Of a stretch of 32,000 nt of DNA, positions 3,038-17,923 are shown piece after piece. Source of the DNA: Nitrosococcus oceani ATCC 19707. Lineage in GTDB: Bacteria > Pseudomonadota > Gammaproteobacteria > Nitrosococcales > Nitrosococcaceae. The stretch is taken from contig NC_007484.1 in NCBI RefSeq assembly GCF_000012805.1, positions 240,001-272,000 on the forward strand. Reading direction: 5' to 3'. Within the stretch, counting starts at the first letter, position 1. Each line of letters starts with the position of its first letter. Made by a program: the position numbers and the translations under genes. The notes under the pieces were generated by a model. The model had not been told where the DNA came from and made no database searches. It worked only from the letters and a program-made list of their open reading frames with translations.

Positions 3038-3862
3038 GTGAGCAGGAAACGCAGATTTGAACGTCTTCACCCTTCCCCGGGTTTGGAGAAAGCCGAGGGT
3101 GATGGCCTCTCGAGCTGTGAATTGCGGTATGGGTTACATGCCGTCCGCGCGGCCCTGGAACAGCCTGCCCTTCAAGTCATGGCCCTATGGCTGGACCAAG
3201 CCCGGATAGATCGATCGCTTCAAAAGTTGGCGAAGCTTGCTTTTCAACGGGGCCTAAAGGCCCAGCTGGTGAAGCGGGAGGAGCTTGATGATTTAGTTCC
3301 TGGAGCGCGCCATCAAGGAGTCGTAGCCCGCTGTTCCGTACAGCCGGCGCTGACGGAGGAAGGGTTATTGACTTTTTTGGAGAACTTAGAGGCGCCGCCT
3401 TTATTGTTGCTCCTGGACGGCGTTCAAGATCCCCATAATCTAGGGGCCTGTTTGCGTACTGCGGAGGCCGCCGGGGTCCATGGAGTGGTGACCCCCAAGG
3501 ATCGCGCGGCAGGTTTAACAGCTGTGGCGCGCAAGGTGGCAAGCGGCGCGGCAGAACGGATTCCCTTAGTGCGCGTGACTAACCTGGCCCGGGTAATGCG
3601 TGCGCTGCGCGAGCGCGGACTCTGGCTAGTAGGTACCGTAGTTGGTGGATCTCATAATAGTCTTTATGAAACCGATCTTCAGGGTCCCCTTGGTTTAGTA
3701 CTTGGCGCTGAAGATCGTGGTCTGCGGCGTCTAACTCAAGAGCATTGTGATTGCCTGGTTCAAATTCCTATGCAAGGAGCGGTAGGTAGCCTCAATGTTT
3801 CGGTTGCAGCGGGGGTGTGCCTTTTTGAGGCGCAACGCCAGCGTGGTTTGCTGCCTAGTTGA
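3038..3862 (+). CDS. rlmB: 23S rRNA (guanosine-2'-O)-methyltransferase RlmB (SpoU/TrmH family)
   Basis: 274-aa ORF with a GTG start. N-terminal YGLHAVRAAL substrate-binding region; SpoU motifs LLLLDGVQDPHNLGACLRTAEAAG, LVLGAEDRGLR and IPMQGAVGSLNVSVAAGV. In-frame TTG codons at 3083 and 3122 are alternative starts. Confidence 0.85.
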   Translation: MSRKRRFERLHPSPGLEKAEGDGLSSCELRYGLHAVRAALEQPALQVMALWLDQARIDRSLQKLAKLAFQRGLKAQLVKREELDDLVPGARHQGVVARCSVQPALTEEGLLTFLENLEAPPLLLLLDGVQDPHNLGACLRTAEAAGVHGVVTPKDRAAGLTAVARKVASGAAERIPLVRVTNLARVMRALRERGLWLVGTVVGGSHNSLYETDLQGPLGLVLGAEDRGLRRLTQEHCDCLVQIPMQGAVGSLNVSVAAGVCLFEAQRQRGLLPS

Positions 3863-3880
3863 ATAGTAGAGCTCATCTCG

Positions 3881-3930: not shown

Positions 3931-4004
3931 TCCCCACCCTTTTACTAATCTCCTTGCCATTCTTTTGAATAGGGTGGCTGTCTAGACCGTAAGGAGTCAA
4001 ATTG

Positions 4005-4475
4005 ATGCGGCATTATGAAGTTGTATTTTTAGTTCACCCAGACCAGAGTGAACAGCTCTCTGCTATGATGGATCGCTACCGCCAGATAATTGAGACCGAC
4101 GGAGGATGCATTCATCGCCTGGAAGATTGGGGCCGGCGCCAGCTCGCCTATCCCATCCAGAAGCTTTACAAGGCCCACTATGTTTTGATGAATATCGAGT
4201 GTACGCCCCGGACGATTGAAGAGTTAACCAGCGCTTTTCGATTCAATGATGCAGTGTTAAGGGATATGGTTATTCGGCGAGAGGAAGCTATCACCGAGAC
4301 TTCGCCCTTGGCGAAAGGAGAAGAGTCCGGTGGCCGCGGTTATGACAGTGCGCGTTCTGGTAGGGATCGGGATGAATCCGGCGGCCGTGGTTATGACGGC
4401 GCACGCCCTGGCAGGGATGAGGATGAATCCAAAGAAAACACGGATAGGGATGAGCAGAGCGAGGACTCAGAATAA
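4005..4475 (+). CDS. rpsF: 30S ribosomal protein S6 with extended repeat-containing C-terminal tail
   Basis: Canonical S6 N-terminus [17 protein letters not shown] and the block [15 protein letters not shown] at 3991-3996 lies 8 nt before the ATG at 4005; the ORF track begins one codon earlier at TTG 4002. The gene heads the S6-S18-L9 operon. Confidence 0.95.
4323..4424 (+). repeat. Two in-frame 51-nt tandem units inside the rpsF 3' end
   Basis: Units 4323-4373 and 4374-4424 encode [17 protein letters not shown] and [17 protein letters not shown]. By my count 40/51 nt and 14/17 aa are identical. Confidence 0.85.
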
Positions 4476-4607
4476 ACCAGATATTTTCGGTCAATGTTAA
4501 GATCGGAATGATTTTGTGGTTGTTTCTGACAATACACTATTTATAAATGTGGATAGCCTGGTTGTGTTGGCCAGGTTGAAAGAAATTAATTCATTGAAGG
4601 TGGAATC

Positions 4608-4832
4608 ATGGCACGTTTTTTTCGGCGCAGAAAATTTTGCCGCTTTACAGCCGAGGGAGTGAAAGAGATTGACTACAAAGATCTAGCTACCCTTAAAGAC
4701 TATATTACGGAAACCGGCAAAATCGTACCGAGCCGGATTACTGGCACTAAAGCCAAATATCAGCGGCAATTATCCCGGGCGGTTAAGCGGGCCCGTTACC
4801 TGGCGTTACTTCCTTATTGCGATCGGCACTAA
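4608..4832 (+). CDS. rpsR: 30S ribosomal protein S18
   Basis: 74-aa ORF with [18 protein letters not shown] and ITGT.AKYQR.L..A.KRAR.LALLPY. GAAGGTGGA Shine-Dalgarno sequence upstream. Confidence 0.97.
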
Positions 4833-4897
4833 TCCAATTTTGGAATACGGAAGAAGAGGGTTGGTTTGGCGCGGCGGAGAAGAGTGAAGGATAGAAA

Positions 4898-5353
4898 ATG
4901 GAAGTGATATTGCTGGAACAGGTGGTGAATTTAGGCAAGCTTGGGGATAAGGTAGCGGTAAAATCCGGTTATGCCCGCAATTACCTGATACCCCAGGGGA
5001 GGGCGGTGAGCGCGACGAAAGAGAATGAAGCTCATTTTGAATCCCGCAAGGCCGAGTTGGAAAAGGCTGCCGGTGATAAGGTTGCGGTAGCAGAGCGGTG
5101 CAAGCAGGCATTAGCAGATCTTGGCAGCGTTACCATTCCAGCCAAGGCCGGCACCGAAGGAAAGTTATTTGGATCGGTGGGGGCTGCCGATATTGCCGAG
5201 GCTTTAACCAAAGCCGGGGTAGAAATAGGCAAAAAGGAAGTACGGCTGCCTGAAGGCGCGTTACGCCAGGTAGGCGAATATGAGCTAGTGATTCATTTAC
5301 ATCCTACGGTAGAAGCCCCTATCAAGGTGGTGGTGACGGGGGAGGAGGAGTAG
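4898..5353 (+). CDS. rplI: 50S ribosomal protein L9
   Basis: 151-aa ORF with the L9 N-domain signature [35 protein letters not shown] and conserved operon position after rpsR. Confidence 0.95.
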
Positions 5354-5433
5354 CTTTCTTCTCGGTGCGCTAACCTGAGACAGGCCTATTTGCCGGGTAT
5401 GAGGCTTGGCGGTAACTCATCAGGAGGGGAAGA

Positions 5434-6852
5434 ATGCCGGAACTTGCCTACCAGGAAAAGAAAGATGAATTCGTCGAAGGGTTAAGAATTCCTCCCCATT
5501 CAATGGAGGCCGAGCAATCGGTATTAGGAGGGTTATTACTCGATAATCAAGCTTGGGAGCAGATCGCTGATATTTTGGGTTCGGAGGATTTCTACCGCCA
5601 GGACCACCGTCTCTTATTTCTTTCTATCGGCGAAATGCTTGAACAATCTCGTCCTTGCGACGTGGTGACCCTCTCCGAGTGGCTCAAAAATAAACGGTTA
5701 CTGGAAGAAACAGGGGGTTTAGCCTATCTCACGAACCTGGCACGCAATACCCCTACTGCCGCTAATATCAAAGCCTATGCCGAGGTAGTTCGGGAGCGTT
5801 CGGTGTTGCGCCAGCTTATCCGGGTGGGCACTGATATTGCTGGTAGTGCCTACCAGCCGGAAGGGCGAGAGAGCGGGGAATTGTTAGATGAAGCTGAGAA
5901 GCGGGTATTTGAAATTGCCGAGCAGGGCGCCCGCGGCCAGCGGAGTTTCGTCAACATAAAAGATCTGCTTGGTAAGGTAGTGGATCGGATCGATCACCTG
6001 TTCGAGCAGGATAGTCCCATTACGGGACTTCCCTCTGGTTTTGCGGATTTTGACCTGCTAACCTCTGGCCTTCAGCCAGCGGATTTGATTATTGCCGCGG
6101 GCAGGCCCTCCATGGGGAAAACCACCTTTGCCATGAATATCGCCGAGCATGTGGCTATTAAGCGCCGGGTTCCTGTGGCGGTGTTTAGCATGGAAATGCC
6201 AGGAGAGCAGTTAGCCATGCGCATGATGTCTTCTCTGGGACACATTGACCAACATCGCGTTCGGACAGGCCGCTTAGAAGACGATGATTGGCCGCGTCTC
6301 ACCTCGGCGATCAGCCTATTAACCGAGGCGCCGCTTTTTATTGACGACACCCCAGCTCTTTCCCCGACCGAGCTGCGGGCGCGGGCCCGGCGGCTGATGC
6401 GGGAGCAGGAGGGCCTGGGTCTAATCCTTATTGATTATTTGCAGCTGATGCAGGTGCCGGGTCACCGGGAAAATCGGGCGACCGAGATCTCCGAAATTTC
6501 ACGTAACCTCAAGGCAGTAGCCAAGGAACTCAAGGTTCCCGTGCTGGCCCTCTCCCAGCTTAACCGGAGTTTGGAACAACGGCCTAATAAGCGGCCCGTA
6601 ATGTCAGATTTACGTGAATCCGGCGCTATTGAGCAGGATGCGGACGTGATAGTATTTATCTATCGCGATGAAGTCTATAATGAAGAGAGTCCTGATCGGG
6701 GGACGGCGGAAATCATCGTTGGCAAGCAGCGCAATGGTCCGATTGGAACTGTGCGTCTCACTTTCCGTGGCCAATATACCCGCTTCGAAAATTATGTACA
6801 GGATGCCTATGGAGCGGGCTCTGGGTTCCCGGCTGCGGATAAGATGAATTAG
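5434..6852 (+). CDS. dnaB: Replicative DNA helicase DnaB
   Basis: 472-aa ORF. N-terminal PPHSMEAEQSVLGGLLLDN, Walker A GRPSMGKTTFAMN, Walker B LILIDYLQLM, and SQLNRSLEQR. No intein insertion. Confidence 0.97.
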   Translation: MPELAYQEKKDEFVEGLRIPPHSMEAEQSVLGGLLLDNQAWEQIADILGSEDFYRQDHRLLFLSIGEMLEQSRPCDVVTLSEWLKNKRLLEETGGLAYLTNLARNTPTAANIKAYAEVVRERSVLRQLIRVGTDIAGSAYQPEGRESGELLDEAEKRVFEIAEQGARGQRSFVNIKDLLGKVVDRIDHLFEQDSPITGLPSGFADFDLLTSGLQPADLIIAAGRPSMGKTTFAMNIAEHVAIKRRVPVAVFSMEMPGEQLAMRMMSSLGHIDQHRVRTGRLEDDDWPRLTSAISLLTEAPLFIDDTPALSPTELRARARRLMREQEGLGLILIDYLQLMQVPGHRENRATEISEISRNLKAVAKELKVPVLALSQLNRSLEQRPNKRPVMSDLRESGAIEQDADVIVFIYRDEVYNEESPDRGTAEIIVGKQRNGPIGTVRLTFRGQYTRFENYVQDAYGAGSGFPAADKMN

Positions 6853-6881
6853 CAAGTAGTACCCGTAGATTCGCAGCTTCC

Positions 6882-7952
6882 TTGAACTTTCCTCAGGCTA
6901 TTATTGATGCCAGCGCATTACGTCATAATCTGCAACGAGTCCGCGAACTGGCACCCCGTAGCCAAATCATGGCGGTCGTTAAGGCCGATGGCTATGGCCA
7001 TGGATTAACAAGAGTGGCTGATGTGCTGGTCGCGGCTGATGCTTTTGCCGTGGCTCGGCTAGAGGAAGCTACGGCGTTGCGTCAAGCTGGTCATCGGTGC
7101 CCCGTCGTTTTGCTGGGTGGTATTTCTGATAAAGAACAGTTGCAGCTTGCCGCCGCCCATCGCCTGACCTTGGTGGTCCATGAATTTGCCCAATTAGATT
7201 TGCTAGAACGGGTTCGAATAACCTCCCCCCTGCCGGTTTGGGTCAAGGCGGATACGGGGATGCACCGCCTCGGTTTTCCCCCACAGGTAGTGGCCAAGGC
7301 AATTGCCCGCTTACGTTGTTGTCCAGCGGTGGCCTCTGTGGTTGGATTGATGAGTCATCTCGCCAGCGCGGATGAAAGCGAGGACTTTCTTACTCCTATT
7401 CAGCTACAGACTTTTGAAGGAATAGCAGCACCGGGATTGTTGCGCAGCATGGCCAATTCTGCGGCTGTGATGGTTTACCCTTACGCCCATTTTGATTGGG
7501 TGCGCCCGGGTTTGATGCTCTATGGTGCTTCCCCTTTTGCCCATGGTACCGGTGCTGCCGTGGGGCTTAAATCCGTTATGACCCTGCAAACCCGTCTTAT
7601 TGCCATCCATCACTTGCGCCCGGGCGATAGTATTGGTTATGGGGCGACTTGGGTATGCCCCGAGGCAATGACCGTGGGGGTGGCAGCTCTTGGTTACGGT
7701 GATGGTTACCCCCGCCATGCGGTGTCGGGGACGCCGGTGTTGGTAAATGGCCGGCCCGTTCCCCTGGTGGGGCGGGTTTCCATGGATATGATTACCCTTG
7801 ATCTGCGCACTCAGCCAAAGGCGAAAGTGGGCGATCCGGTGATTGCTTGGGGGCCGAATTTGCCGGTAGAAGAGGTGGCGCGCCATGCCACTACCATCCC
7901 CTATGAACTGTTATGCCAAGTCACTGGGCGGGTACCGCGGACTATGGAATAA
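6882..7952 (+). CDS. alr: Alanine racemase
   Basis: 356-aa ORF with a TTG start. PLP-lysine motif AVVKADGYGHG; also GYGDGYPR, GRVSMDM and a C-terminal YELLC. The dnaB-alr adjacency matches E. coli. Confidence 0.92.
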   Translation: MNFPQAIIDASALRHNLQRVRELAPRSQIMAVVKADGYGHGLTRVADVLVAADAFAVARLEEATALRQAGHRCPVVLLGGISDKEQLQLAAAHRLTLVVHEFAQLDLLERVRITSPLPVWVKADTGMHRLGFPPQVVAKAIARLRCCPAVASVVGLMSHLASADESEDFLTPIQLQTFEGIAAPGLLRSMANSAAVMVYPYAHFDWVRPGLMLYGASPFAHGTGAAVGLKSVMTLQTRLIAIHHLRPGDSIGYGATWVCPEAMTVGVAALGYGDGYPRHAVSGTPVLVNGRPVPLVGRVSMDMITLDLRTQPKAKVGDPVIAWGPNLPVEEVARHATTIPYELLCQVTGRVPRTME

Positions 7953-7957
7953 GCAGA

Positions 7958-9328
7958 ATGGGAAAACCTAAAACTGTTTACCAATGCACTCAGTGCGGTG
8001 CTGAATCGGCTCGTTGGGCTGGCCAATGTGCTGGCTGCGGCGCTTGGAATAGCCTGGAGGAGCAGCTAAGCGCCGAGTTGCCGAAACGGACTGGACGTTA
8101 TGCCCACTACGCCGGTGCGTTGAGCACGGTGCAGCCCTTGGCGGAGGTACAAGTAACCGGTGAGGTGCGCTTATCAACGGGCCTATCCGAATTGGATCGA
8201 GTCTTAGGCGGAGGATTGGTGACGGGTTCGGTGGTGCTGATTGGGGGCGCACCGGGGATTGGTAAATCCACCTTGTTATTACAGGCCCTGGCTAAAATGG
8301 GCGCAGTCCAAGAAGGTAAAGTGTTGTATTTAACCGGAGAGGAATCCCTGGCGCAAATTAGCCTTAGAGCTCAGCGCCTGGGTTTGGGAGCGGCGCCGGT
8401 ACGGCTATTAGCCGACACCCTGGTGGAGCGGGCCTTAGCCGTTGCCCGGCAAGAACGGCCCCAGGTGATGGTAGTGGACTCTATCCAGACTTTATATACG
8501 GAGCAGCTGCAATCGGCGCCGGGTACGGTGACTCAAGTGCGGGAAAGTGCTGGTCAGTTGCTGCGTTTTGCCAAGCAAGGCGGGACCGGAGTCATCCTTG
8601 TGGGCCATGTGACTAAGGAGGGCGCCCTGGCTGGTCCCCGAGTTTTGGAACATATGGTGGATACGGTGCTTTACTTCGAGGGAGATGGAGGAGAACGCCT
8701 CCGGGTGTTGCGGGCAGCTAAGAATCGCTTTGGCGCGGTGAATGAGCTGGGAGTTTTCGCTATGACCGAGCAGGGGCTGCGGGGCGTCACTAATCCCTCC
8801 GCCATCTTTCTTTCTCGGGGGAAAGAAGCGGTTCCTGGAAGCGCCGTCACCGTGATCCGGGAAGGAAGCCGTCCTTTGCTGGTAGAGGTTCAGGCCCTGG
8901 TGGATGATAGCCATCTTGCCAATCCCCGCCGGGTTACGGTGGGCCTAGAGCCCAACCGGTTAGCCATGTTGCTTGCCATTCTTCACCGCCATGGCGCGGT
9001 TATGCCAGGGGCTCAGGATGTTTTTATAAACGTGGTAGGGGGAGTGCGGGTGAATGAAACAGGCGCTGATCTAGCGGTTCTCGCCGCCATTGTTTCCAGC
9101 TTGCGGGATCGCCCGTTAGACCAGGAATTAGTGTTGTTTGGAGAGGTAGGATTGACGGGAGAAATCCGTCCCGTGCCGGGGGGGGAAGAACGTCTGGCGG
9201 CTGCCGCTAAACATGGTTTTAAAAAGGCGATTTTGCCTCGGGGAAATACCCCGAGACGGCCAGTCGAGAATATCGCTATTGTTCCTGTAAACCGTCTTGC
9301 TGAAGTACTGGAGGCCCTCAAAGAATAA
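7958..9328 (+). CDS. radA: DNA repair protein RadA/Sms
   Basis: Zinc ribbon CTQCGAESARWAGQCAGCGAWNS, Walker A GGAPGIGKST, the RadA-specific AKNRFG motif, and a Lon-protease-like C-domain. I chose the ATG at 7958, 6 nt after the alr stop, because the track start at 7913 overlaps alr. Confidence 0.95.
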   Translation: MGKPKTVYQCTQCGAESARWAGQCAGCGAWNSLEEQLSAELPKRTGRYAHYAGALSTVQPLAEVQVTGEVRLSTGLSELDRVLGGGLVTGSVVLIGGAPGIGKSTLLLQALAKMGAVQEGKVLYLTGEESLAQISLRAQRLGLGAAPVRLLADTLVERALAVARQERPQVMVVDSIQTLYTEQLQSAPGTVTQVRESAGQLLRFAKQGGTGVILVGHVTKEGALAGPRVLEHMVDTVLYFEGDGGERLRVLRAAKNRFGAVNELGVFAMTEQGLRGVTNPSAIFLSRGKEAVPGSAVTVIREGSRPLLVEVQALVDDSHLANPRRVTVGLEPNRLAMLLAILHRHGAVMPGAQDVFINVVGGVRVNETGADLAVLAAIVSSLRDRPLDQELVLFGEVGLTGEIRPVPGGEERLAAAAKHGFKKAILPRGNTPRRPVENIAIVPVNRLAEVLEALKE

Positions 9329-9383
9329 GTTTCCTTTTTTGAGCTGGTAGCGTTGCGGGTCTGTGGGTGAGCCGGGTTCGGTA

Positions 9384-11180
9384 TTATATGAAATGGGTAT
9401 CCGCTCCCGTTTTTATGGAATTAGCGGGCCTAGACACTGTTGCAAGTAGCGCGGACAACGGTTGCGGCTGACCAAGGCCATAGCCTTGCCCGTAATCTAT
9501 ACCGAGGCCGCGTAGTTTATCCAGGATAGCGTCGTTTTCGATGTATTCAGCAATGGTTTTTTTCCCCAGCAGATGGCCGATTTCGTTGATTGAACGAACC
9601 ATAGCCAGATCGATGGGGTCATCGACAATGTCTTTAACAAATAGACCATCAATTTTGAGAAAATTAACGGGCAGGGCCTTGAGGTAAGCAAACGAGGACA
9701 AGCCGCTGCCAAAGTCATCAAGAGAGAAACAACAGCCGCGTGTTTTCAGCGCCTCCATGAACCGGGTGGCATCAGCAAGATTAGCCACGGCGGCTGTTTC
9801 CGTAATCTCGAAGCAGATTTTTTTAGCCGGCAGGCCGGTATCGTCAAATTGCCGCAGTACATAAGCGTGGAAAAAGCGATCACCGATAGAGTGGCCCGAT
9901 AAATTAATAGTGCATAACGTGATTCGATCAAGCAGCGCCGGATGGGCGGCCAGCCAGCGCAATGCCTGGGTAACGACCCAGCGATCAATCGCAACGGCCA
10001 GATTATAGCGCTCGGCGGCTGGCATAAATGCGCCTGGCGGCGATATCTTACCATCGTTTTCCACCAACCGTAGTAACAATTCGCAGTGTATGCCACCGGA
10101 TAGCGTGGCCTTAAGCGGCACTATCGGTTGTGCATACAGTTGAAAGCGATTCTCTTCCAATGCCTGCTGAATACGGGCCACCCATTGCATTTCACCATGG
10201 CGCCGGGCCAACTCCACATCGTGCTCACGATAAATGTGAATTCGATTACGGCCGCCGTCTTTAGCAACGTAACAGGCGCTGTCGGCTGTTTGTAAGACGC
10301 TGGCGGCGCTTGAATTAGCAATGGTGATGGGCACCAAGCCGATACTGACGCCGATCCGAAAGTGTTGCCCATTCCAGCAAAAACGGAAACCCTCAACCGT
10401 TTGACGTAAGGTATTGGCTATTTGCAGCGCTCTGTCCAACGAGCAGTGCTCTAATAGCAGCCCAAATTCATCGCCTCCCAGCCGCGCCAGCGTATCGCGC
10501 CGACGGATATTTTTTTCGAACAGCACCGCCAGCTGTTGCAACAACGCATCGCCTGAAGCGTGCCCGCAAGTGTCGTTGACAAGCTTAAATTGATCGAGAT
10601 CGAGATAGCATAGGGCGTGCTCGCTGTTTTGCGTCTGAACGGTCTCGATTACCCTTTGCAAGCGCCGCTCAAACTCACGGCGATTGACTAGACCCGTAAG
10701 GGCATCGTGTTGCGCCTGATGGGCAATTTCGCACTGCAACCGGCGCTGTTCACTAACATCGTGAAATACCAGTACCGCGCCTAGCACCTGGTTGTTGGCG
10801 TCGCGGATAGGGGCGGCGGAGATTTCAATTGAATATTCGGCGCCGTGGCGACTGATGAGTACCGTAGGGTTGGTGGATCTCACAGCGGAGCTGCCAGTCA
10901 AGCAAGGGGCGAGAGGATCGGCTACCGGCTCACGGGTGGACTCATTGATAATTTGCAATACGTCCGGTAATGCTTTGCCCCGGGCAGCCGCCAATAGCCA
11001 ACCGGTCATAGCCTCGGCGGTTGGATTAAGGTAGTTGATACGGCTATTAGCATCAGTAGTAATCACCCCGTCGCCGATGGATTCCAGGGTTACCTGGATA
11101 CGCTCTTTTTCGGCGACCAGCGCGGCCTCGGCACGGTTACGGGCGGTGACATCATGCATTACTGTGAGCGAGTGAGCCAC
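9384..11180 (-). CDS. Downstream fragment: PAS-GGDEF-EAL (ORF as it stands)
   Basis: 598-aa ORF opening at an internal GTG (11180), with an in-frame ATG at 11159. It holds a PAS domain (GDGVITTD...), a GGDEF domain and an EAL domain. Whether it is translated on its own is unknown. Confidence 0.7.
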   Translation of the reverse strand: MAHSLTVMHDVTARNRAEAALVAEKERIQVTLESIGDGVITTDANSRINYLNPTAEAMTGWLLAAARGKALPDVLQIINESTREPVADPLAPCLTGSSAVRSTNPTVLISRHGAEYSIEISAAPIRDANNQVLGAVLVFHDVSEQRRLQCEIAHQAQHDALTGLVNRREFERRLQRVIETVQTQNSEHALCYLDLDQFKLVNDTCGHASGDALLQQLAVLFEKNIRRRDTLARLGGDEFGLLLEHCSLDRALQIANTLRQTVEGFRFCWNGQHFRIGVSIGLVPITIANSSAASVLQTADSACYVAKDGGRNRIHIYREHDVELARRHGEMQWVARIQQALEENRFQLYAQPIVPLKATLSGGIHCELLLRLVENDGKISPPGAFMPAAERYNLAVAIDRWVVTQALRWLAAHPALLDRITLCTINLSGHSIGDRFFHAYVLRQFDDTGLPAKKICFEITETAAVANLADATRFMEALKTRGCCFSLDDFGSGLSSFAYLKALPVNFLKIDGLFVKDIVDDPIDLAMVRSINEIGHLLGKKTIAEYIENDAILDKLRGLGIDYGQGYGLGQPQPLSALLATVSRPANSIKTGADTHFI

Positions 11181-11417
11181 ACTGCCGTCAGGGTCGCGCT
11201 CGGCAATGGCCGATAGCAGGACATCAAAAACTTCGCCGTTTTTCTTTTGGATTCCAGGGTTACCTGGATACGCTCTTTTTCGGCGACCAGCGCGGCCTCG
11301 GCACGGTTACGGGCGGTGACATCATGCATTACTGTGAGCGAGTGAGCCACACTGCCGTCAGGGTCGCGCTCGGCAATGGCCGATAGCAGGACATCAAAAA
11401 CTTCGCCGTTTTTCTTT
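11078..11417. repeat. Perfect 2 x 170-bp direct tandem duplication
   Basis: Base-by-base comparison shows 11078-11247 is identical to 11248-11417. The flanking bases differ (11077 a vs 11247 t; 11248 t vs 11418 a), so there is no junction microhomology. Confidence 0.97.
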
Positions 11418-12568
11418 ACCATTTGGTAAGGGACGTCGCGGCAAGCGCCGCTACGCATAAATGCCGGTAGTACAACCTCGGTCGCGTAGCGGCGGGAGGC
11501 CTCGGTCATAAAATCCGTAGAGCACCGCCCAATGACCTCATCGTGCTCATAGCCCATGATGGTGAGCCAATAAGCGCTGACCCTGAGCAGCCGCCCTTGA
11601 TGATCAATCGAGTGCAGCATGGCCGGGGTATCATGATAGAGCGAGCGATAGCGTGCTTGATTTTGTATTATCTCCGCTTCTGCACGAAGCCGGTTTTCAC
11701 GCTCGATGCTAATCACCAGCGCTGGCAGGATGACTAGACTTAGGTAAATTTGCAGCGTTTGAATCGTGGTTAAGGAAATGCCGCCGGCTTGACTGGCGAT
11801 GGGACCCACGCCTTGCAGCGTGAGTGCAACCACGATGATAGTGATAACGAGTCCCAGTACCCCACACGCAAATAGGCCGAGACGGAAACTGAACCAGAGC
11901 ATCACGGGGGCAGTTAAGTATATGAGGGCGTACGATGAACTGTGGAACACGCCGACTGTAACCGCCGCGGCGCTCAGTAAGGCCATTGCCGTTTCAATCG
12001 CCCGCTTCGTCAGCAACATTTTCGCCACTGGCCAGGAAGCGCTTAGCAGGACCGGTGTGATGAGGGCGATACTGACCACATCGGCGAGCCACCAAGTCGG
12101 CCACGCGGCCCAGTAAAATGTGCCATAGACCACCCCAATGAAGACTGCGCCCGCGGCGGTGCCAAGCAGACCCGCACCTACTAACGCTAGTAGTTGCGAG
12201 GGTTCCCGGAGTGTAACCGGTAGTGGCATTAGCCGCTGCATGCAAGCGACCGTTACGGCAACCGCCAAGCCATTGGCCAGCATAAACCCTAGCGCGATAC
12301 TGGTTGACTCACCCATCAGCTTGCTGGCCACTAGGTCGGCTAGCAGGCAGCTCCCGAAGTAACCCGGCCAGTAGCGAGGGTTGGCCCGCAATAGTACGCC
12401 GATGAGGATGGCGTTCGATGGCCACAGCACGGCGATATTGTCGCCTTCGTTAGATAGCTCAGTTTTGAGCAAGGCAGTCAGAAAATAAGCTAGACCGACC
12501 GCCAGAAAACGGATTCCCTGCGCTCTTGTTACGGGTTTACCACCCATTTCTCTAAAATATGTTAGCAA
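11159..12568 (-). CDS. Upstream fragment: MASE1 membrane sensor domain plus first PAS domain (ORF as it stands)
   Basis: 469-aa ORF with about 8 hydrophobic helices in the first ~290 aa (MASE1-like), then a PAS domain. The last ~29 codons (KRKTAKFLMS...TRSQ) are an out-of-frame read of repeat copy 1. The start could be TTG 12568 or ATG 12547. Confidence 0.7.
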   Translation of the reverse strand: MLTYFREMGGKPVTRAQGIRFLAVGLAYFLTALLKTELSNEGDNIAVLWPSNAILIGVLLRANPRYWPGYFGSCLLADLVASKLMGESTSIALGFMLANGLAVAVTVACMQRLMPLPVTLREPSQLLALVGAGLLGTAAGAVFIGVVYGTFYWAAWPTWWLADVVSIALITPVLLSASWPVAKMLLTKRAIETAMALLSAAAVTVGVFHSSSYALIYLTAPVMLWFSFRLGLFACGVLGLVITIIVVALTLQGVGPIASQAGGISLTTIQTLQIYLSLVILPALVISIERENRLRAEAEIIQNQARYRSLYHDTPAMLHSIDHQGRLLRVSAYWLTIMGYEHDEVIGRCSTDFMTEASRRYATEVVLPAFMRSGACRDVPYQMVKKNGEVFDVLLSAIAERDPDGSVAHSLTVMHDVTARNRAEAALVAEKERIQVTLESKRKTAKFLMSCYRPLPSATLTAVWLTRSQ

Positions 12569-12776
12569 GACGCTCGGTCAATCGCTCAGCTTTATTTTCT
12601 TTATCTTAGCCGTTTTTGGCGCCTGATGGTTATCAAATAGCCGCTGAAAAACAATTCTGGCTGCAGTTTCCAGCAGAGTCTGAGAGTTGATAGTAGGAGC
12701 CGCACCGAAGATTTGCTAATCTAGCAGGTGCTAGGGCTCATAGACAATAATTTTAACTTGGAGTGATCACATAAGC

Positions 12777-13196
12777 ATGCTTTGGATCAAAGCCTTTCAT
12801 ATTATCTTTGTGGTGACCTGGTTCGCTGGTCTGTTTTATTTACCGCGGTTATTTGTCTACCATGCCCAATGCCAGGATAAGCCAGGGCGGGAGCGTTTTA
12901 AAGTCATGGAGCGCAAGCTTTATCGCGGTATTATGCATCCTAGTGCTATTTTGGCAGTGGGATTAGGTGTGTGGCTGATTTATTTAACTCCGGCTTGGAT
13001 GGGGGCGGGGTGGCTCCATGTCAAACTTTCCCTGGTTCTGCTTTTGATTGCCTATCATCTTTATTGTGGCCGGTTGTTGATCGCCTTTCGCGAAGAGCGT
13101 AACCGCCACAGTCATGTGTATTATCGCTGGTTTAATGAGTTCCCAGTGTTAATCCTGATTGGCGCGGTGATTCTAGTGGTGGTAAAGCCTTTTTGA
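12777..13196 (+). CDS. hemJ: Protoporphyrinogen IX oxidase HemJ (UPF0093/CopD-like membrane protein)
   Basis: 139-aa ORF with 4 TM helices. Family signature N-terminus WIKAFHIIFVVTWFAGLFYLPRLFVYH and the block ER.LYR.IM.P. Confidence 0.8.
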   Translation: MLWIKAFHIIFVVTWFAGLFYLPRLFVYHAQCQDKPGRERFKVMERKLYRGIMHPSAILAVGLGVWLIYLTPAWMGAGWLHVKLSLVLLLIAYHLYCGRLLIAFREERNRHSHVYYRWFNEFPVLILIGAVILVVVKPF

Positions 13197-13252
13197 GGAT
13201 AGCGCGTATTTTTAGAACAGAAAAATAAGACCGTTGAGCGGGGGGAGAAAGC

Positions 13253-14296
13253 ATGGAAATTCGTCTTTCAGAGATTGCCCAGTTTTTGGGTTGCGCTATT
13301 GAGGGCGATGGAGAAGCCCCTATCCGGGGGATTGCGCCCCTCCATCAGGCGCAGGCAAGCGAGCTAAGCTTTTATACTAATCGTAAGTACGCGGCTCAGG
13401 CTCGGTTATCAAAGGCGGGGGCTATCATAGTAGGGGCCAAGGATCGGGAACAATTTGCGGGTCGTCGCCTGCTTATTTCGGACAATCCTTACCGTGATTT
13501 TGCTCGAGTCGTGGATAGGTGGTTTAATCGCTCTTACCGTCCGGCGCCAGGTGTGCATCCTACGGCTATCGTGGGGGACGACGTACAAATTGCGGAAAAC
13601 TGCAGTATTGGGGCCTATTGTGTAATTGAAGACGGGGTGACTATCAAAGCTCATACCGTCTTATTTCCCTTTTGTTACGTGGGCGCTAAGACGATTCTCG
13701 GTGAGCATTGCTTGCTCTATCCGCGCGTTACCCTGCTGGAGCGGGTGAGGATTGGGCACCGGGTTATCCTTCACCCTGGCGTGGTTATTGGTGGCGATGG
13801 TTTTGGATTTGCGCCGGACCCTCCTCAGGGCTATTTTAAGGTGCCGCAAGTGGGGTGGGTAGAGATTGCCGATGATGTGGAGGTGCAATGTAATACAGCC
13901 ATTGACCGGGGGGCGTTGGGACCGACCCGAATCGGTCAGGGCAGCAAAATCGATAATCTGGTTCAAGTTGGCCACAATGTAGAGATTGGCGAGCACAGCA
14001 TTATTGTTAGCCAGGTGGGTATTTCTGGGAGTAGCAAAATTGGTAATTGGGTGACCTTGGCGGGCCAGGTAGGGTTAGTGGGTCATATTCGGATCGGCGA
14101 TGGGGCCGTGATAACCGCCCAATCCGGGGTGGCTAAGGATGTGCCACCCAAGGCCATTATGACTGGCAGCCCCGTCCAGCCTATGATGGAAAACCGCAGG
14201 GCGCTGGCAGAGCTGAACCGGCTTAGGGAGTTGCGCAAAAAGGTCCGTGAGTTGGAGCGGCGACTCACGGTGCTGGAGCAAGTTGAAAGCTGCTAA
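13253..14296 (+). CDS. lpxD: UDP-3-O-acylglucosamine N-acyltransferase
   Basis: 347-aa ORF with an N-terminal uridine-binding domain (LSEIAQFLG...I.G.A.L..A....LSF), a long left-handed beta-helix of hexapeptide repeats, VQVGHNVEIGEHS (catalytic His region), and a C-terminal helical tail. Confidence 0.92.
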   Translation: MEIRLSEIAQFLGCAIEGDGEAPIRGIAPLHQAQASELSFYTNRKYAAQARLSKAGAIIVGAKDREQFAGRRLLISDNPYRDFARVVDRWFNRSYRPAPGVHPTAIVGDDVQIAENCSIGAYCVIEDGVTIKAHTVLFPFCYVGAKTILGEHCLLYPRVTLLERVRIGHRVILHPGVVIGGDGFGFAPDPPQGYFKVPQVGWVEIADDVEVQCNTAIDRGALGPTRIGQGSKIDNLVQVGHNVEIGEHSIIVSQVGISGSSKIGNWVTLAGQVGLVGHIRIGDGAVITAQSGVAKDVPPKAIMTGSPVQPMMENRRALAELNRLRELRKKVRELERRLTVLEQVESC

Positions 14297-15284
14297 TGGG
14301 CTCCGGAGGCAGAGTCGTAAGGAATAAGCCGAGGGTAAGGGCTGGTGGAGGGCCTGGCGTTTCCAACAGGCGATAGACTCGGCCACGGTTGATGCTGGCC
14401 GCCGCCTGTTCTGAGCCCCCCAGAATATACAAATGGGAGCCGGTGCTGATAGCGGGCATCCCGTGGAGCGCCATGGGCAAGGGAGGACCAGGTTGCCATT
14501 TTCCGGATAGCTTTTCCAAGATTTCTGAACTGGCCAGGGTTGTTCGTCCGGTCATGATGATTTCGCCTCCGAAAACCATGATTTTTCCTTGATAAACCGC
14601 TGCGCCATGGCCACCCCGGGCGGTATTCAAGGAGGGGCCTTCCCGCCAAGTATCGGTTGCGGGATCATAGATTTCCACTGAGCCCAGTTCGCCAGCGCCC
14701 TGATAGCGGCCGCCGAGGACGACGATCCTGTCTTCAAAAACCACGCTGCGGATATGCTCCCTGCGCTGGTGCATCCCCTTTAGGAAATCCCAGGAATCTT
14801 GCTGTGGGTCATAGCGGAGCAATCTTCCGCTTGGGCCTTTGCCGCCTACAACGTAAATAAAATCACCCATTGAGACGGCATCTCCCGCATAGCGGGGTTC
14901 GGGCAAGGGCGTTAAGGTTTGCCACTGATTGCTGGGGGGATCGTAAACCCAAGCGGTTACCGTTGGAGACCAATCTTGATCGCCGCCCCCAAAAACATAG
15001 ATTTTCCCCTGATGGGCTGTGGCCATGAGGTGATGGCGAGGGGCTGGCAGCGGTGCCAGTTGTTCCCAGCTATCAGTGGTAACATCATATACTTCAAACT
15101 GGTGCTGGCCGCCTAATCCTCCTGGTACATATATTTTTCCATCCAGATAGGCTGCCGCCATTTCCGAACGGTGGGTGGGCATGGGATGTAGTTGTTGCCA
15201 CTGCGCCGAGGCGGAATAGGTTAGAAACAATAGGCTTAGGCTTAGCAAGAAAAGTAAGCTTAGGTAGGTTTTATTAGATCTCAT
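14265..15284 (-). CDS. Secreted/periplasmic six-bladed Kelch-repeat beta-propeller protein
   Basis: 339-aa ORF with a signal peptide (LSLLFLLSLSLLFLTYSASA-QW). There are six Kelch-type blades, each with a hydrophobic-GG doublet: YVPGGLGG, YVFGGGD, YVVGGKG, VVLGGRY, MVFGGEI, YILGGSE. Its 3' end overlaps the lpxD 3' end by 32 nt, convergently. Confidence 0.85.
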   Translation of the reverse strand: MRSNKTYLSLLFLLSLSLLFLTYSASAQWQQLHPMPTHRSEMAAAYLDGKIYVPGGLGGQHQFEVYDVTTDSWEQLAPLPAPRHHLMATAHQGKIYVFGGGDQDWSPTVTAWVYDPPSNQWQTLTPLPEPRYAGDAVSMGDFIYVVGGKGPSGRLLRYDPQQDSWDFLKGMHQRREHIRSVVFEDRIVVLGGRYQGAGELGSVEIYDPATDTWREGPSLNTARGGHGAAVYQGKIMVFGGEIIMTGRTTLASSEILEKLSGKWQPGPPLPMALHGMPAISTGSHLYILGGSEQAAASINRGRVYRLLETPGPPPALTLGLFLTTLPPEPISSFQLAPAP

Positions 15285-15420
15285 TTGGGCGCGCCGATTG
15301 TGTGGGTGTATCTTTTAGCATAGCAGTTTGTGTTCCGGAACACCGCTGTAATCATGTGCATGCGGCCCCCTTACGCCTCATCTATTACAGCGTTGAATGT
15401 GTGGGTAAGGAGTTCATTAA

Positions 15421-16191
15421 TCAGATTTTTTGCATTCTCATTTCAACCAGGGGGTAAATCATGTTGTTCCAAACTGCACCGAGGGCTTGACTCTTTTCTA
15501 GCCCTTCCCAAATTCTGGGCCAGTCCAGATGGGTTGGACTGAGCGCCCCGTAAGCGCTGAACATGGATTTCAGCAAGGCGTTGTTTTTCCTTCGGATCAT
15601 CCATTTCCGCCATAGCCACCAACCGGTCATACCTATCCAGATCAGTGGCCCCAGGGGTGAGGCCGGGGAAACGGCTGCAAAGATGATGAACCAGGCGGCA
15701 ATTTTAAGCAGCAATAAAGCGCCTCTCCACGCTTCCGTCAGGACTCTAAAGCCGGTTTTGCCCGATTTTCTGGATTGATAACGGCTGAAGGGCATGGTGC
15801 GGGCGCGGATGGTATCCAGCGCCGCCAGATAATCCCCATAGATTAAAGTGTTCAACACCAACCAGTCCAGTTCCCGGCAATGGAGCCAGGGAGCACGCAA
15901 ATAGCGCCCGGCAGCCTGTTGTAATTCCTCTTGAGCGAAATTTAAATTGCGCCAGTCCAATTCCCTGTCGTTTAGGGTGCGATGATGCCAGGCAGTAAGG
16001 GGATTTGGGGGGATTTCCGGGACATTCTCGCTGTTTTCCCATCCAATGGAGCGAAAGATATCCTTAACAATGGCTTGGGCTTCGGCTTGAAGTTGTTCCG
16101 TGGCGGAGTCGTTTAGATGGCGCTTGTTGGCCTCTATGGATGCTTGCTGGGCAGTTTGGGTAAGAAGTTCTGCTTTGGTGACCATTGCCAT
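15421..16191 (-). CDS. Hypothetical membrane protein (soluble N-domain plus two C-terminal TM helices)
   Basis: 256-aa ORF with AAGGG just upstream of the ATG pair at 16191/16185. Predicted TM segments are LLLLKIAAWFIIFAAV and LGPLIWIGMTGWWLW. I recognise no family motif. The coding call rests on ORF length, position and plausible composition only. Confidence 0.6.
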   Translation of the reverse strand: MAMVTKAELLTQTAQQASIEANKRHLNDSATEQLQAEAQAIVKDIFRSIGWENSENVPEIPPNPLTAWHHRTLNDRELDWRNLNFAQEELQQAAGRYLRAPWLHCRELDWLVLNTLIYGDYLAALDTIRARTMPFSRYQSRKSGKTGFRVLTEAWRGALLLLKIAAWFIIFAAVSPASPLGPLIWIGMTGWWLWRKWMIRRKNNALLKSMFSAYGALSPTHLDWPRIWEGLEKSQALGAVWNNMIYPLVEMRMQKI

Positions 16192-16347
16192 CCCTTTGGT
16201 AGTTGCCGGTTAATCAACGAGGAACTTGTCATTATATTGGGATATTTTCTACCAGGAAGGAAAAATTTTCCATGGATAATGGTTGGATGACCGGGATCAA
16301 ATTGCCTTTATGGGAATGGATTATTATTGGCGAGATTATTGTAAGAA

Positions 16348-16392
16348 GACCGGGAGGAAAGGAACTGATACCCTCCTGCCGGTCTGTTTTTA
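16348..16392 (+). terminator. Terminator-like hairpin with a plus-strand T-tract (function and strand uncertain)
   Basis: agaccgg (16348-54) pairs with ccggtct (16380-86), and gagg (16355-58) with cctc (16373-76), with a 3-nt bulge and 14-nt loop, followed by gttttt. It sits in the spacer between two minus-strand genes, and no plus-strand gene lies upstream of it. Confidence 0.3.
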
Positions 16393-16438
16393 GAGAGATT
16401 TAAAATCTTCTCTCGGTGTGGATTGAGGCAGGTATCTG

Positions 16439-17734
16439 TTAGGGATTATCTACCTCGCTCATCAAGGGTGGAAGCTTGGTGCTGGTGACAGTGAAGTTGT
16501 ATTGATGCCACGGTGACTCAACCAGTAATGTTCTCTCGCTGGGGCTAGGACAATCCTTGAGGGGCATGGTAGGATCAATAGAGCAGACATATTGTGCGCC
16601 GCCGCTTTCCTCATCTAGTGCCGGGGCCACACCAATTCGTATAAAATACTTGCCTGGATTGCGGATACCCAGATAATAATTTTGTTCCATGTCGGTCCGC
16701 CCGGTGAGCAGCATTCGTTCATTTTCATCGTACACGGTGACTTGCCAAGTGCTGTCTTCGCAGTCTTGGCTAGCGCAAAATTCTATACTGAGAATTTCAT
16801 TCCCTGCCGTGTCATAGACAAACCAGTCCTCTTCGAAGGCAAATCCCACCGATCCAAAGATGAGAGGTCCGGATATTAAGCCCTCCATGGTGACATTGGA
16901 TGCGAGGGGGGTGGCAAAGGTTAATGGGTTGGCTTCATCGCGGGAGTCATTGGGTTCCACTTCGGCGTCAAAAAAATTGACGTCAAGGGGTTCCGTGGTG
17001 ACCTGAGAATCCCCCAGAAAAGCGGCCAGGCGGTACTCGTGGGGCAGATGTTCATAGATCAGGTCAGCTTCGCCGCTTTGGTCTGAAGATCTTGTCTCTT
17101 CCTGGGCCTGCTTCAAGGATTTTACCACTACATAATAAGTACCCGCACGGGATAGGATTGTCTGTAATGGGCTTTCTGGTCCGAAGTCAAACCCAGTGTA
17201 GACTTCCGAGAAAATATTACCCCCGCTATCCCGAATGGAGAGATTCCATCCGGTAATATCGTTTAATCCGGGAACGTTAAAATTAACGGTGAGCATTTGA
17301 TTGGATTCCGTGGTGGTAATACGGAACCAGTCCACATCTTCCGGGCTATAAAGCTGCCCCGCGTATTCAACGCCGAACTCCATGGCGTCAGCGCCCATGG
17401 CATGGTTATTGGGTTCGGTTTCGCCAAAGCCGGTGCTGTCTAGAAAACTGGATAAAGTCACCCCGCAGCTTGCCGGATCGGTGGCGCATCCTGCTTTGGT
17501 TTCAGCAATAATTTCATCCTTGTTTGCAGGGGGGGAGGCGTTGGTATCAGCCTCCGGCTCTGGGTCTGCGGTATTACTAAAGTTCTGAGTACTTTCTTGG
17601 CTGGTATTATTGCTGCTGGTATTATTGTTATCATTTGAATCCAACTCGGGGAAGATATTCAAACCAGCCGCCCCGAGGGTTGGCACAAGTAGCAAACCTA
17701 AAAAAATAAAACAGTGACGGGCCAAATTTTTCAC
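16439..17734 (-). CDS. Secreted protein with two pre-peptidase C-terminal (PPC) domains and no catalytic domain
   Basis: Signal peptide (M)KNLARHCFIFLGLLLVPTLGAAG, then an Asn/Ser/Thr/Asp-rich linker. Two PPC-type modules start at ETEPNNHAMGADAM...DVDWFRI and EVEPNDSRDEANPL...EEDWFVY, and there are three Cys pairs. I prefer the GTG at 17734, which has AGGGAG 8 nt upstream; the track start is GTG 17743. Confidence 0.8.
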   Translation of the reverse strand: MKNLARHCFIFLGLLLVPTLGAAGLNIFPELDSNDNNNTSSNNTSQESTQNFSNTADPEPEADTNASPPANKDEIIAETKAGCATDPASCGVTLSSFLDSTGFGETEPNNHAMGADAMEFGVEYAGQLYSPEDVDWFRITTTESNQMLTVNFNVPGLNDITGWNLSIRDSGGNIFSEVYTGFDFGPESPLQTILSRAGTYYVVVKSLKQAQEETRSSDQSGEADLIYEHLPHEYRLAAFLGDSQVTTEPLDVNFFDAEVEPNDSRDEANPLTFATPLASNVTMEGLISGPLIFGSVGFAFEEDWFVYDTAGNEILSIEFCASQDCEDSTWQVTVYDENERMLLTGRTDMEQNYYLGIRNPGKYFIRIGVAPALDEESGGAQYVCSIDPTMPLKDCPSPSERTLLVESPWHQYNFTVTSTKLPPLMSEVDNP

Positions 17735-17923
17735 TATAACCACTCCCTAATATTCTGAGCCCAATGTAATTTAAGCCCCGGCGCATAAGTACGATCGGTA
17801 TTATTCGACTTCTGAAAAAAGCTGTGGGGCTTTATGGAAACAGGCCATTCTCCGCCGGGGGTTAAACGCCTAAGCCAAGATAGCGGTAGGTGATTTAAAA
17901 TTCTTGAGTCTTAAAGCAAGATT

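Follow-up and report, generated by a model that had tools for sequence, protein, structure and literature searches.

A perfect 170-bp tandem duplication that splits a MASE1-PAS-PAS-GGDEF-EAL gene in Nitrosococcus oceani

Organization of the split locus and of the restored gene

The analyzed DNA (hereinafter referred to as the window) was a stretch of 32,000 nucleotides from the chromosome of Nitrosococcus oceani ATCC 19707, and the features found at the locus are listed in Table 1. Two adjacent copies of a 170-bp unit were identified. Direct comparison of the copies within the 32-kb window showed a match at all 170 positions, and Tandem Repeats Finder reported the repeat with a score of 680, a period of 170, 2.0 copies, and 100% matches. 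Identity beyond the unit edges was 0 bases on both sides, and no junction microhomology was detected at the repeat by flank extension on either side, which confirmed the exact 170-bp identity and the absence of microhomology claimed in an earlier note on this DNA. A perfect repeat of 170 nt cannot have originated by chance. Only one further array, a 51-bp repeat (81%), was present in the window.

Table 1. Positions of the features of the duplicated locus in the window.
Feature	Position	Strand	Description
Downstream ORF	9384..11159	-	591 aa from ATG 11159; 598 aa from GTG 11180
8-bp inverted repeat GTCGCCGA / TCGGCGAC	11070..11117		Left breakpoint coincides with the end of the left arm
Copy 1 of the 170-bp unit	11078..11247		Second in minus-strand reading; contains the out-of-frame tail and the downstream ORF start
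TAATG, stop/start overlap by one base	11157..11161	-	TAA 11161-11159; ATG 11159-11157
Upstream ORF	11159..12547	-	462 aa from ATG; 469 aa from TTG 12568
Aberrant tail, 29 out-of-frame codons from copy 1	11162..11248	-	Translation KRKTAKFLMSCYRPLPSATLTAVWLTRSQ
Novel junction, 11247/11248	11231..11264		Plus strand ...CGCCGTTTTTCTTT / TGGATTCCAGGG...
Copy 2 of the 170-bp unit	11248..11417		First in minus-strand reading, in frame

Copy 2 codes for KKNGEVF...IQVTLES, which covers the C-terminal part of PAS1, the linker between the PAS domains, and the start of PAS2 (aa 385-440 of the 1004-aa ORF described below). The junction between the copies, spanned by ...CGCCGTTTTTCTTTTGGATTCCAGGG... in the duplicated allele, is the sole sequence that tells this allele from the single-copy allele, which on the plus strand reads GTCGCCGA, one unit, and then ACCATTTGG.

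Two overlapping ORFs were present on the minus strand as a result of the 2-nt frameshift that the duplication introduces. The upstream ORF (ABA56757.1 / EDZ65589.1 / GEM20514.1) contained MASE1 (~11705-12508), the complete PAS1 (~11312-11608), the linker, and the aberrant tail; it was normal through copy 2 up to ...TLES, where the frame was lost, and the junction peptide of its product was ...IQVTLESKRKTAKFLMSCYRPLPSATLTAVWLTR. The downstream ORF (ABA56756.1 / WP_256998772.1), starting within copy 1 and ending at 9384, contained the linker, PAS2 (~10740-11102), GGDEF (~10242-10715), and EAL (~9465-10175). Since both ORFs keep the duplicated segment, no domain was lost from either half. The ATG in the TAATG overlap was the native in-frame Met414, and it opened the 591-aa ORF. 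Translation agreed with the earlier description of a minus-strand frameshift, a stop after 29 aberrant codons, and two ORFs; in RefSeq, the gene is annotated as two fragments.

No Shine-Dalgarno-like sequence was found ahead of either candidate downstream start (GTG 11180 or ATG 11159), and no promoter-like site was found within the 170-bp unit. No slippery heptamer or long homopolymer was seen by eye in the stretch from the altered frame to the stop (the junction reads TCC AAA AGA AAA ACG, with A runs of 4 and 5). On this inspection, and because the arrangement does not occur in the orthologues, we rejected a programmed frameshift or slippage during transcription as the explanation of the junction.

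Deletion of one copy in silico restored a single 3015-nt ORF (1004 aa plus stop) from TTG 12568; in the annotations of the orthologues, the start is placed at an ATG seven codons downstream of this TTG, giving 997 aa. Pfam analysis of the restored ORF identified MASE1 (PF05231; residues 21-288; 69.6 bits against a gathering cut-off of 29.8), two PAS domains (321-419 and 433-553), GGDEF (562-719; E = 5.6e-42), and EAL (742-978; E = 1.1e-58), in line with the domain order and the intact motifs that had been proposed from the sequence alone. The motifs RRRD-x5-GGDEF, EITE, and DDFGSG were present in the restored ORF, and the GGDEF domain, which carries the RxxD I-site five residues upstream of the GGDEF motif, reads RRRDTLARLGGDEF.

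The C-terminal half aligned nearly end to end, over 430 residues, with the structure of Pseudomonas aeruginosa RbdA (PA0861; PDB 5xgb; E = 4.6e-154). In this alignment, the N. oceani/RbdA pairs were EITE/EVTE, DDFGSG/DDFCAG, AEYIE/AEFVE, and GQG/AQG, and KIDG was kept; judged from these residues, the EAL motifs of N. oceani look RbdA-like and apparently intact. [quoted passage not shown] Escherichia coli DgcE (YegE) has the architecture MASE1-PAS-PAS-PAS-GGDEF-EAL and acts as a cyclase, its EAL domain being degenerate. DgcE and the N. oceani protein have MASE1, tandem PAS, and GGDEF-EAL in common, whereas the EAL motifs of the latter look intact. RbdA is a c-di-GMP phosphodiesterase, the deletion of which leads to higher c-di-GMP (PMC7148300; PMC10294637). 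The N-terminus of RbdA contains a putative periplasmic sensor domain (PMC10294637), whereas the N. oceani protein has MASE1 and an extra PAS domain, and its split in the window falls between PAS1 and PAS2.

Distribution of the duplicated and single-copy alleles

The split products ABA56757.1 and ABA56756.1 of strain ATCC 19707 are encoded by a finished 3.48-Mb chromosome. The same arrangement was found in strain NS58, whose contig BJWX01000011.1 matched the window without a difference across 11,797 bp, both copies included, and in strain AFC27, whose scaffold DS995301.1 was identical over 8,420 bp, again including both copies. The three assemblies that resolved the duplication used different technologies, that of NS58 being based on 301-bp MiSeq reads and SPAdes. 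The contig of strain C-27 stopped at window position 11396, 22 nt into copy 2, and this strain almost certainly carries the duplication. ATCC 19707, AFC27, NS58, and C-27, which belong to a near-clonal cosmopolitan lineage, share ANI of >99.99% with one another and of 98.28% with strain AFC132 (PMC6715879). The isolation sites of the carriers are the Atlantic, the North Pacific, and Tokyo Bay; NS58 was obtained from Tokyo Bay sediment, isolated in Japan independently of the US strains, and differs from ATCC 19707 by nine SNPs (PMC6715879).

For the SRA runs, presence or absence of the junction was inferred from k-mer contigs that either broke or read through. A de Bruijn graph built from the window at k=31 is branched by the novel junction, and its flank unitigs are predicted to end at 11107 and to start at 11388; a single-copy genome has no graph branch at either position. 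Logan contigs from SRR1425912 and SRR9437462 ended at 11107, and contigs from SRR9437463, SRR9429920, SRR9437462, and SRR22137129 started at 11388. In total, at least six independent k=31 read assemblies broke at the predicted positions. A contig from SRR29904083 had the duplicated-type layout, compared by gene layout alone. The unit and the junction were common to all carriers, and the graph breaks were confined to the two positions; no recurrent duplications with different ends were found among the carriers, either in the assemblies or in the graph breaks. Since every carrier has the same junction, a single duplication event is indicated.

Orthologues were taken from a protein search and exact look-ups. 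Strain AFC132 (JPFN01000010.1) and Nitrosococcus watsonii (CP002086) each harbored one undivided 997-aa ORF, and on these sequences the single-copy state is ancestral. A two-ORF layout with diverged copies, which the earlier note had named as the mark of an old fixed arrangement, was looked for in the relatives, and they have the single undivided gene. The two copies of the 170-nt unit differed from each other at 0 positions, from AFC132 at 9, and from N. watsonii at 20, which supports the view that the event is very recent. Insertion of foreign or mobile DNA was ruled out: the unit consists of native coding sequence, of which AFC132 and N. watsonii each have one copy.

The single-copy allele was also found in contigs from SRR22137162, -108, -151, -118, -174, and -140, which matched the window at 100% identity for as much as 11 kb; the gene in SRR22137162 was, base for base, the collapsed gene of the window. 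Within the SRR221371xx series, which may simply mix different strains, these six runs read through and SRR22137129 broke at 11388. Both alleles thus occur on one background, since runs of identical DNA in this series show the single copy and the duplication-type break. Further, the difference represents a strain-level polymorphism rather than an assembly error, because otherwise identical DNA from other runs has the undivided gene. Judged at this locus, the single-copy runs may be revertants or a never-duplicated sister line.

No N. oceani-like locus was found among JGI metagenome contigs with the PAS1-PAS2 region as query (best match, 57% identical), and a scan of genome contigs with the restored protein detected no Nitrosococcus relatives, giving only partial matches (29-58% identical). 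Neither the gene nor the duplication is mentioned in a 2013 N. oceani expression paper or in the main text of the 2020 five-strain comparison.

Origin of the duplication and competing explanations

The 8-bp inverted repeat at the left breakpoint encloses a 6-bp hairpin (TCCAGG/CCTGGA), and the region, as single-stranded DNA, was predicted to fold with -13.4 kcal/mol (z = -2.05). At the right breakpoint, no structure above background was found (z = -0.3 to -0.7). Inverted repeats of 6 bp were frequent in the region. A part of the inverted repeat in the formation of the duplication is speculative.

Taken together, we consider it likely that the locus represents a genuine, single-origin, and very recent 170-bp duplication at the PAS1/PAS2 junction of the 997-aa MASE1-PAS-PAS-GGDEF-EAL gene, which is a lineage marker, is revertible, and uncouples the sensor from the enzyme. 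An assembly or sequencing artefact from a mis-joined repeat, which had been raised earlier, would likewise give zero divergence between the copies, but its probability is negligible: the duplication was resolved in the ATCC 19707 chromosome, the AFC27 scaffold, and the MiSeq assembly of NS58, and the exact graph breaks recurred in independent read sets, where none would be expected for a single-copy genome. A mutation of laboratory domestication, with the 'strains' being in reality one laboratory lineage, would fit the near identity of the carriers, the existence of single-copy material with identical flanks, and the frequency with which c-di-GMP genes are targets in culture. Such an origin is nevertheless very unlikely. 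The independent isolation of NS58 speaks against it, the same microhomology-free junction cannot arise repeatedly, and the 2020 strain comparison favors natural clonal evolution (PMC7285500). The earlier suggestion that the event arose in one culture is likewise unlikely, given the wide geographic separation of the sites at which the carriers were isolated.

It is somewhat unlikely that the locus is a dead and decaying pseudogene of which neither ORF gives a working protein. The broken frame, the downstream start without a ribosome-binding site, and the annotation as two fragments are consistent with decay, but the two ORFs together retain all domains, the TAATG overlap permits coupling, and the collapsed ORF equals the intact allele with no second disabling change, a weak point because the lineage is so young. 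An adaptive switch resembling phase variation was judged unlikely. In such a system, populations of N. oceani would use a heritable toggle in which repeat collapse and rarer re-expansion switch an RbdA-like c-di-GMP phosphodiesterase between a single MASE1-coupled polypeptide and two TAATG-coupled proteins; both states would persist within one clone, with effects on aggregation or dispersal. The occurrence of both alleles on a 100% identical background and of both signatures inside the SRR221371xx series, the suitability of the repeat as a substrate for precise deletion, the survival of all domains together with the newly formed TAATG overlap, and a precedent in Streptococcus pneumoniae, in which duplication in cap3A turns the capsule off and reversion turns it on (Waite et al., 2001, as described in PMC11163986), are in accordance with a switch. 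Against it, the one junction in every carrier points to one event, unlike the recurrent cap3A duplications, and the forward step has no microhomology to make it recurrent; moreover, the SRA series may be explained by different strains. In addition, the duplication persists in three strains from different oceans that were independently isolated and sequenced, which argues that collapse is rare or selected against.

Predicted consequences and significance

The two ORFs created by the frameshift encode a membrane protein composed of MASE1, PAS1, and the linker, ending in a junk tail of 29 residues, and a separate linker-PAS2-GGDEF-EAL protein. Because the upstream stop overlaps the native ATG, termination-reinitiation probably allows continued translation of the RbdA-like PAS-GGDEF-EAL half. 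The reinitiated enzyme half would be soluble, produced in smaller amounts, and cut off from MASE1/PAS1 input; as the predicted net outcome, one sensory c-di-GMP input would be lost or rewired. The perfect direct repeat would be able to collapse precisely into the intact gene, by replication slippage or homologous recombination, and the duplication is probably revertible. At the junction, no microhomology that would favor re-duplication was found, and for this reason the locus is better regarded as a revertible mutation and lineage marker than as a symmetrical switch. It is at most a one-way revertible mutation, and a regulated two-way switch is hypothetical.

Pneumococcal capsule duplications recur with diverse endpoints and lengths, and their switching has been measured. 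In contrast to cap3A, the N. oceani carriers have one junction, and the forward step lacks a feature for recurrence. What the two systems share is that a perfect in-ORF tandem duplication inactivates the gene and precise loss of one copy restores it, as described for cap3A and also for cap8E and tts of S. pneumoniae (Waite et al., 2001, as described in PMC11163986). In the IS-flanked, RecA-dependent duplication of Burkholderia thailandensis, as may be the case here, the copy number of a direct repeat constitutes a heritable and reversible state (PMC9946442). Duplications of that type comprise many genes, recur in both directions owing to the IS copies at their ends, and act through gene dosage (PMC9946442), whereas the N. 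oceani duplication lies within one gene, measures 170 bp, lacks flanking repeats, and takes effect by shifting the frame.

Among marine gammaproteobacterial ammonia oxidizers, N. oceani serves as the model, and because its strains are nearly identical from one ocean to another, any structural difference among them is informative. The duplication provides a marker that can be scored by PCR (~330 vs. 500 bp) and that distinguishes the cosmopolitan clone both from AFC132 and from the single-copy DNA of public reads. If the single-copy runs are revertants, the locus would offer a testable case of a reverting tandem-duplication switch outside pathogens. It also represents a natural gene fission, in which one mutation turned a multidomain sensor-enzyme into two complete and potentially co-translated parts. 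Physiology studies rely on a type strain whose c-di-GMP signalling gene is altered, and this alteration could bear on aggregation and biofilm formation.

Structure of the duplication and the divided gene

The two adjacent copies of the unit were identical at 170/170 positions, and Tandem Repeats Finder, run on the window, reported a period of 170 with 2.0 copies, 100% matches, and a score of 680. On neither side of the repeat did the match continue for even one more base; the junction thus lacks microhomology. The resulting ORFs are listed in the table below. When one copy was removed in silico, a single ORF of 3015 nt was obtained, and the restored protein contained MASE1 (21-288), PAS (321-419), PAS (433-553), GGDEF (562-719), and EAL (742-978) domains with the motifs RRRD-x5-GGDEF, EITE, and DDFGSG. 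Profile and motif tests identified it as a member of the GGDEF-EAL and MASE1 families. The earlier note had described a base-perfect duplication without junction microhomology, a frame shift followed by about 29 aberrant codons and a stop, a downstream ORF resuming inside copy 1, and recovery of a 3015-nt frame with intact motifs upon removal of one copy, all of which were reproduced.

Features of the duplicated locus (window coordinates) and protein accessions of the two halves
Feature	Start	End	Strand	Description
Repeat copy 1	11078	11247		
Repeat copy 2	11248	11417		
Upstream ORF	12568 (TTG) or 12547 (ATG)	TAA 11161-11159	-	Copy 2 in frame to ...IQVTLES
Aberrant tail of upstream ORF		TAA 11161-11159	-	29 out-of-frame codons in copy 1
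Downstream ORF	GTG 11180 (598 aa) or ATG 11159 (591 aa), inside copy 1	9384	-	
Upstream half, annotated				462 aa; ABA56757.1 / EDZ65589.1 / GEM20514.1
Downstream half, annotated				591 aa; ABA56756.1 / EDZ65519.1 / GEM20513.1

A promoter-like match at 12554-12581 (-) (TTGACC, 16-nt spacer, TATTTT) overlaps TTG 12568 and ends 7 nt before ATG 12547; placed there, it would argue for the annotated start (997 aa) rather than that of the longest ORF. Matches of this kind are no more frequent in the region than expected by chance. Elsewhere in the window, a 51-bp tandem repeat (4326-4430; 2.1 copies, 81% matches) lies within ORF 4002-4475, which seems to encode ribosomal protein S6; the protein would then have a repeated 17-residue unit in its C-terminal tail.

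Distribution of the two alleles among strains and sequencing runs

In the 90% protein cluster, the split pair was annotated in three assemblies, one of which was the 3.48-Mb ATCC 19707 chromosome. The 598-aa product had an exact match on BJWX01000011.1 (GCA_007990675.1), a contig that agrees with the window at every base for 11,797 bp, both copies included; it belongs to N. oceani NS58 from Tokyo Bay sediment, assembled with SPAdes from 301-bp MiSeq reads (PMC6715879). In strain AFC27, scaffold DS995301.1 matched the window at 100% identity for 8,420 bp, again with both copies, and contig JPGN01000009.1 of strain C-27 stopped at 11396, 22 nt inside copy 2, as expected of an assembler at an unresolved repeat.

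An alignment with orthologous genes had been proposed in the earlier note, and AFC132 (JPFN01000010.1) and N. watsonii C-113 (CP002086) each proved to carry an undivided 997-aa ORF with one copy. In the protein search, N. watsonii provided the closest intact orthologue (997 aa, 89% identity), and the species match was also N. oceani. The intact genes (AFC132, N. watsonii, restored window, and run SRR22137162) were all 2994 nt long and aligned without gaps. The restored window gene differed from that of AFC132 at 79 positions (9 in the unit) and from that of N. watsonii at 362 (20 in the unit), whereas the two window copies showed 0 differences. ANI is >99.99% among ATCC 19707 (Atlantic), AFC27 (North Pacific), C-27 (Barbados), and NS58 (Tokyo Bay), and 98.28% for AFC132 (South Pacific) (PMC6715879). 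From these copy and unit differences, the strain distribution, and the ANI values, it follows that the duplication is derived, arose after AFC132 had split off, and is a shared mark of the cosmopolitan clonal lineage. The suggestion that the event is very recent was thus upheld, while an origin in culture alone is unlikely, as independent sequencing found it in strains from three oceans.

Compared with window 4384-16402, the AFC132 locus showed mosaic divergence, with only 6 differences in 4384-10000 (the stretch from rpsF to radA plus the EAL-encoding end of the c-di-GMP gene), a rise within that gene from ~10300 to a peak of 34 differences per 500 nt in the PAS1 region (11500-12000), and ~2% beyond it; such a pattern suggests either a boundary of recombination or a sweep within the gene. 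At its positions 813-2330 and 3200-3880, the N. watsonii locus carried an IS200/IS605-type pair (Y1 transposase and TnpB-like OrfB) between lpxD and the UPF0093 gene, and a TnpB-like fragment ending ~120 nt upstream of the MASE1 gene start, followed by a 44-aa ORF overlapping that start. Neither was found in the N. oceani window.

Public SRA runs assembled at k = 31 (Logan) served as an independent check of the repeat. When the window was turned into a de Bruijn graph (k = 31), the duplicated allele was predicted to give a left-flank unitig ending at 11107 and a right-flank unitig starting at 11388, and the single-copy allele to give no branch. Contigs ended at 11107 in SRR1425912 (a contig common to three samples) and SRR9437462, and started at 11388 in SRR9437463, SRR9429920, SRR9437462, and SRR22137129; these runs therefore contain the junction. 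A contig of SRR29904083, compared at the level of gene layout, had a matching layout. These breaks at the predicted positions, together with the three assemblies, contradict the option of an assembly artefact that the earlier note had left standing; the duplication is real and was correctly described.

The AFC132 sequence with one copy was found in SRR1501315. In six further runs (SRR22137162, -108, -151, -118, -174, and -140), contigs ran through the locus with one copy, apart from this matched the window at 100% identity along stretches of up to 11.1 kb, and contained the collapsed window gene, base for base. Given that contigs from this pipeline do break at the repeat in other runs, and that chance is very unlikely to have left a coverage gap at just the 30 junction k-mers in each of six runs, the single-copy state was taken as real, on our understanding of the assembler rather than on mapped reads. 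Both alleles thus occur on one sequence background, the SRA series SRR221371xx showing both signatures. Contigs SRR22137162_165 and SRR22137140_1556 both ended exactly at window 17756, through which the 2019 contig SRR9437463_188 reads. The site is intergenic, upstream of ORF 16439-17743, and AT-rich with no obvious repeat; the break hints at heterogeneity of the single-copy material, or at a second site where it departs from the reference lineage.

Predicted products of the split gene

Residues 385-440, encoded by the unit, span the end of PAS1, the linker between the two PAS domains, and the beginning of PAS2. Owing to the second copy of this segment, neither ORF has a truncated domain: MASE1-PAS1-linker plus 29 junk residues make up the upstream product, and linker-PAS2-GGDEF-EAL the downstream one. 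Across ~430 residues, the latter could be aligned with the part of Pseudomonas aeruginosa RbdA that has been crystallised, PAS-GGDEF-EAL (5xgb, E = 4.6e-154); RbdA has EVTE at the position of EITE in the N. oceani protein. RbdA is a c-di-GMP phosphodiesterase, whose deletion raises c-di-GMP and biofilm (PMC7148300).

No Shine-Dalgarno-like sequence was found before either candidate downstream start, and no promoter-like site within the 170-bp unit. In the sequence TAATG (11161-11157, -), the out-of-frame TAA overlaps the native Met414 codon by one base, and the downstream protein could plausibly be made only by termination-reinitiation there. Such translational coupling is well known and usually of reduced efficiency. 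Most likely, the enzymatic module would be either lost or made in soluble form and in smaller amounts, and in both cases would be freed from MASE1/PAS1 input.

Origin and reversibility

Precise loss of one copy, through replication slippage or homologous recombination, is well established for tandem repeats of this size, and the same may be expected of this perfect 170-bp repeat. The occurrence of both alleles on an identical background is compatible with the reversible switch envisaged in the earlier note; the single-copy allele on that background is compatible with reversion and equally with a never-duplicated sister line. Against a true two-way switch, one junction is common to all carriers, there is no microhomology that would make the forward step recurrent, and the duplication has persisted in independently sequenced strains from three oceans. 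At the left breakpoint, an 8-bp inverted repeat (GTCGCCGA/TCGGCGAC; 11070-11117), the left arm of which ends exactly at the breakpoint, encloses a 6-bp hairpin; the inverted repeat folds at -13.4 kcal/mol (z = -2.05), and structure at the right breakpoint was not above background. Any role of this repeat in the origin of the duplication would be speculative.

In cap3A of Streptococcus pneumoniae, intragenic tandem duplications switch the gene off and reversion switches it on (Waite 2001, as cited in PMC11163986), and in Burkholderia larger duplications act as bet-hedging devices (PMC9946442). The N. oceani locus shares the structure of the cap3A type but not its recurrent forward events, and is a new example of an already known mechanism class, intragenic tandem duplication. 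Among the papers covered here, the five-strain comparison, the NS58 announcement, and the 2013 expression study, none was found to mention the duplication.

At this locus, a sensory c-di-GMP gene has been divided neatly into two halves by a tandem duplication that arose once, very recently, and marks a lineage. The site is polymorphic on an otherwise identical background, and the duplicated allele can probably revert. The finding is of moderate interest, since it can mark strains and calls for caution with the type strain, and its interest would be greater only if the single-copy material were a revertant or if both halves were expressed.
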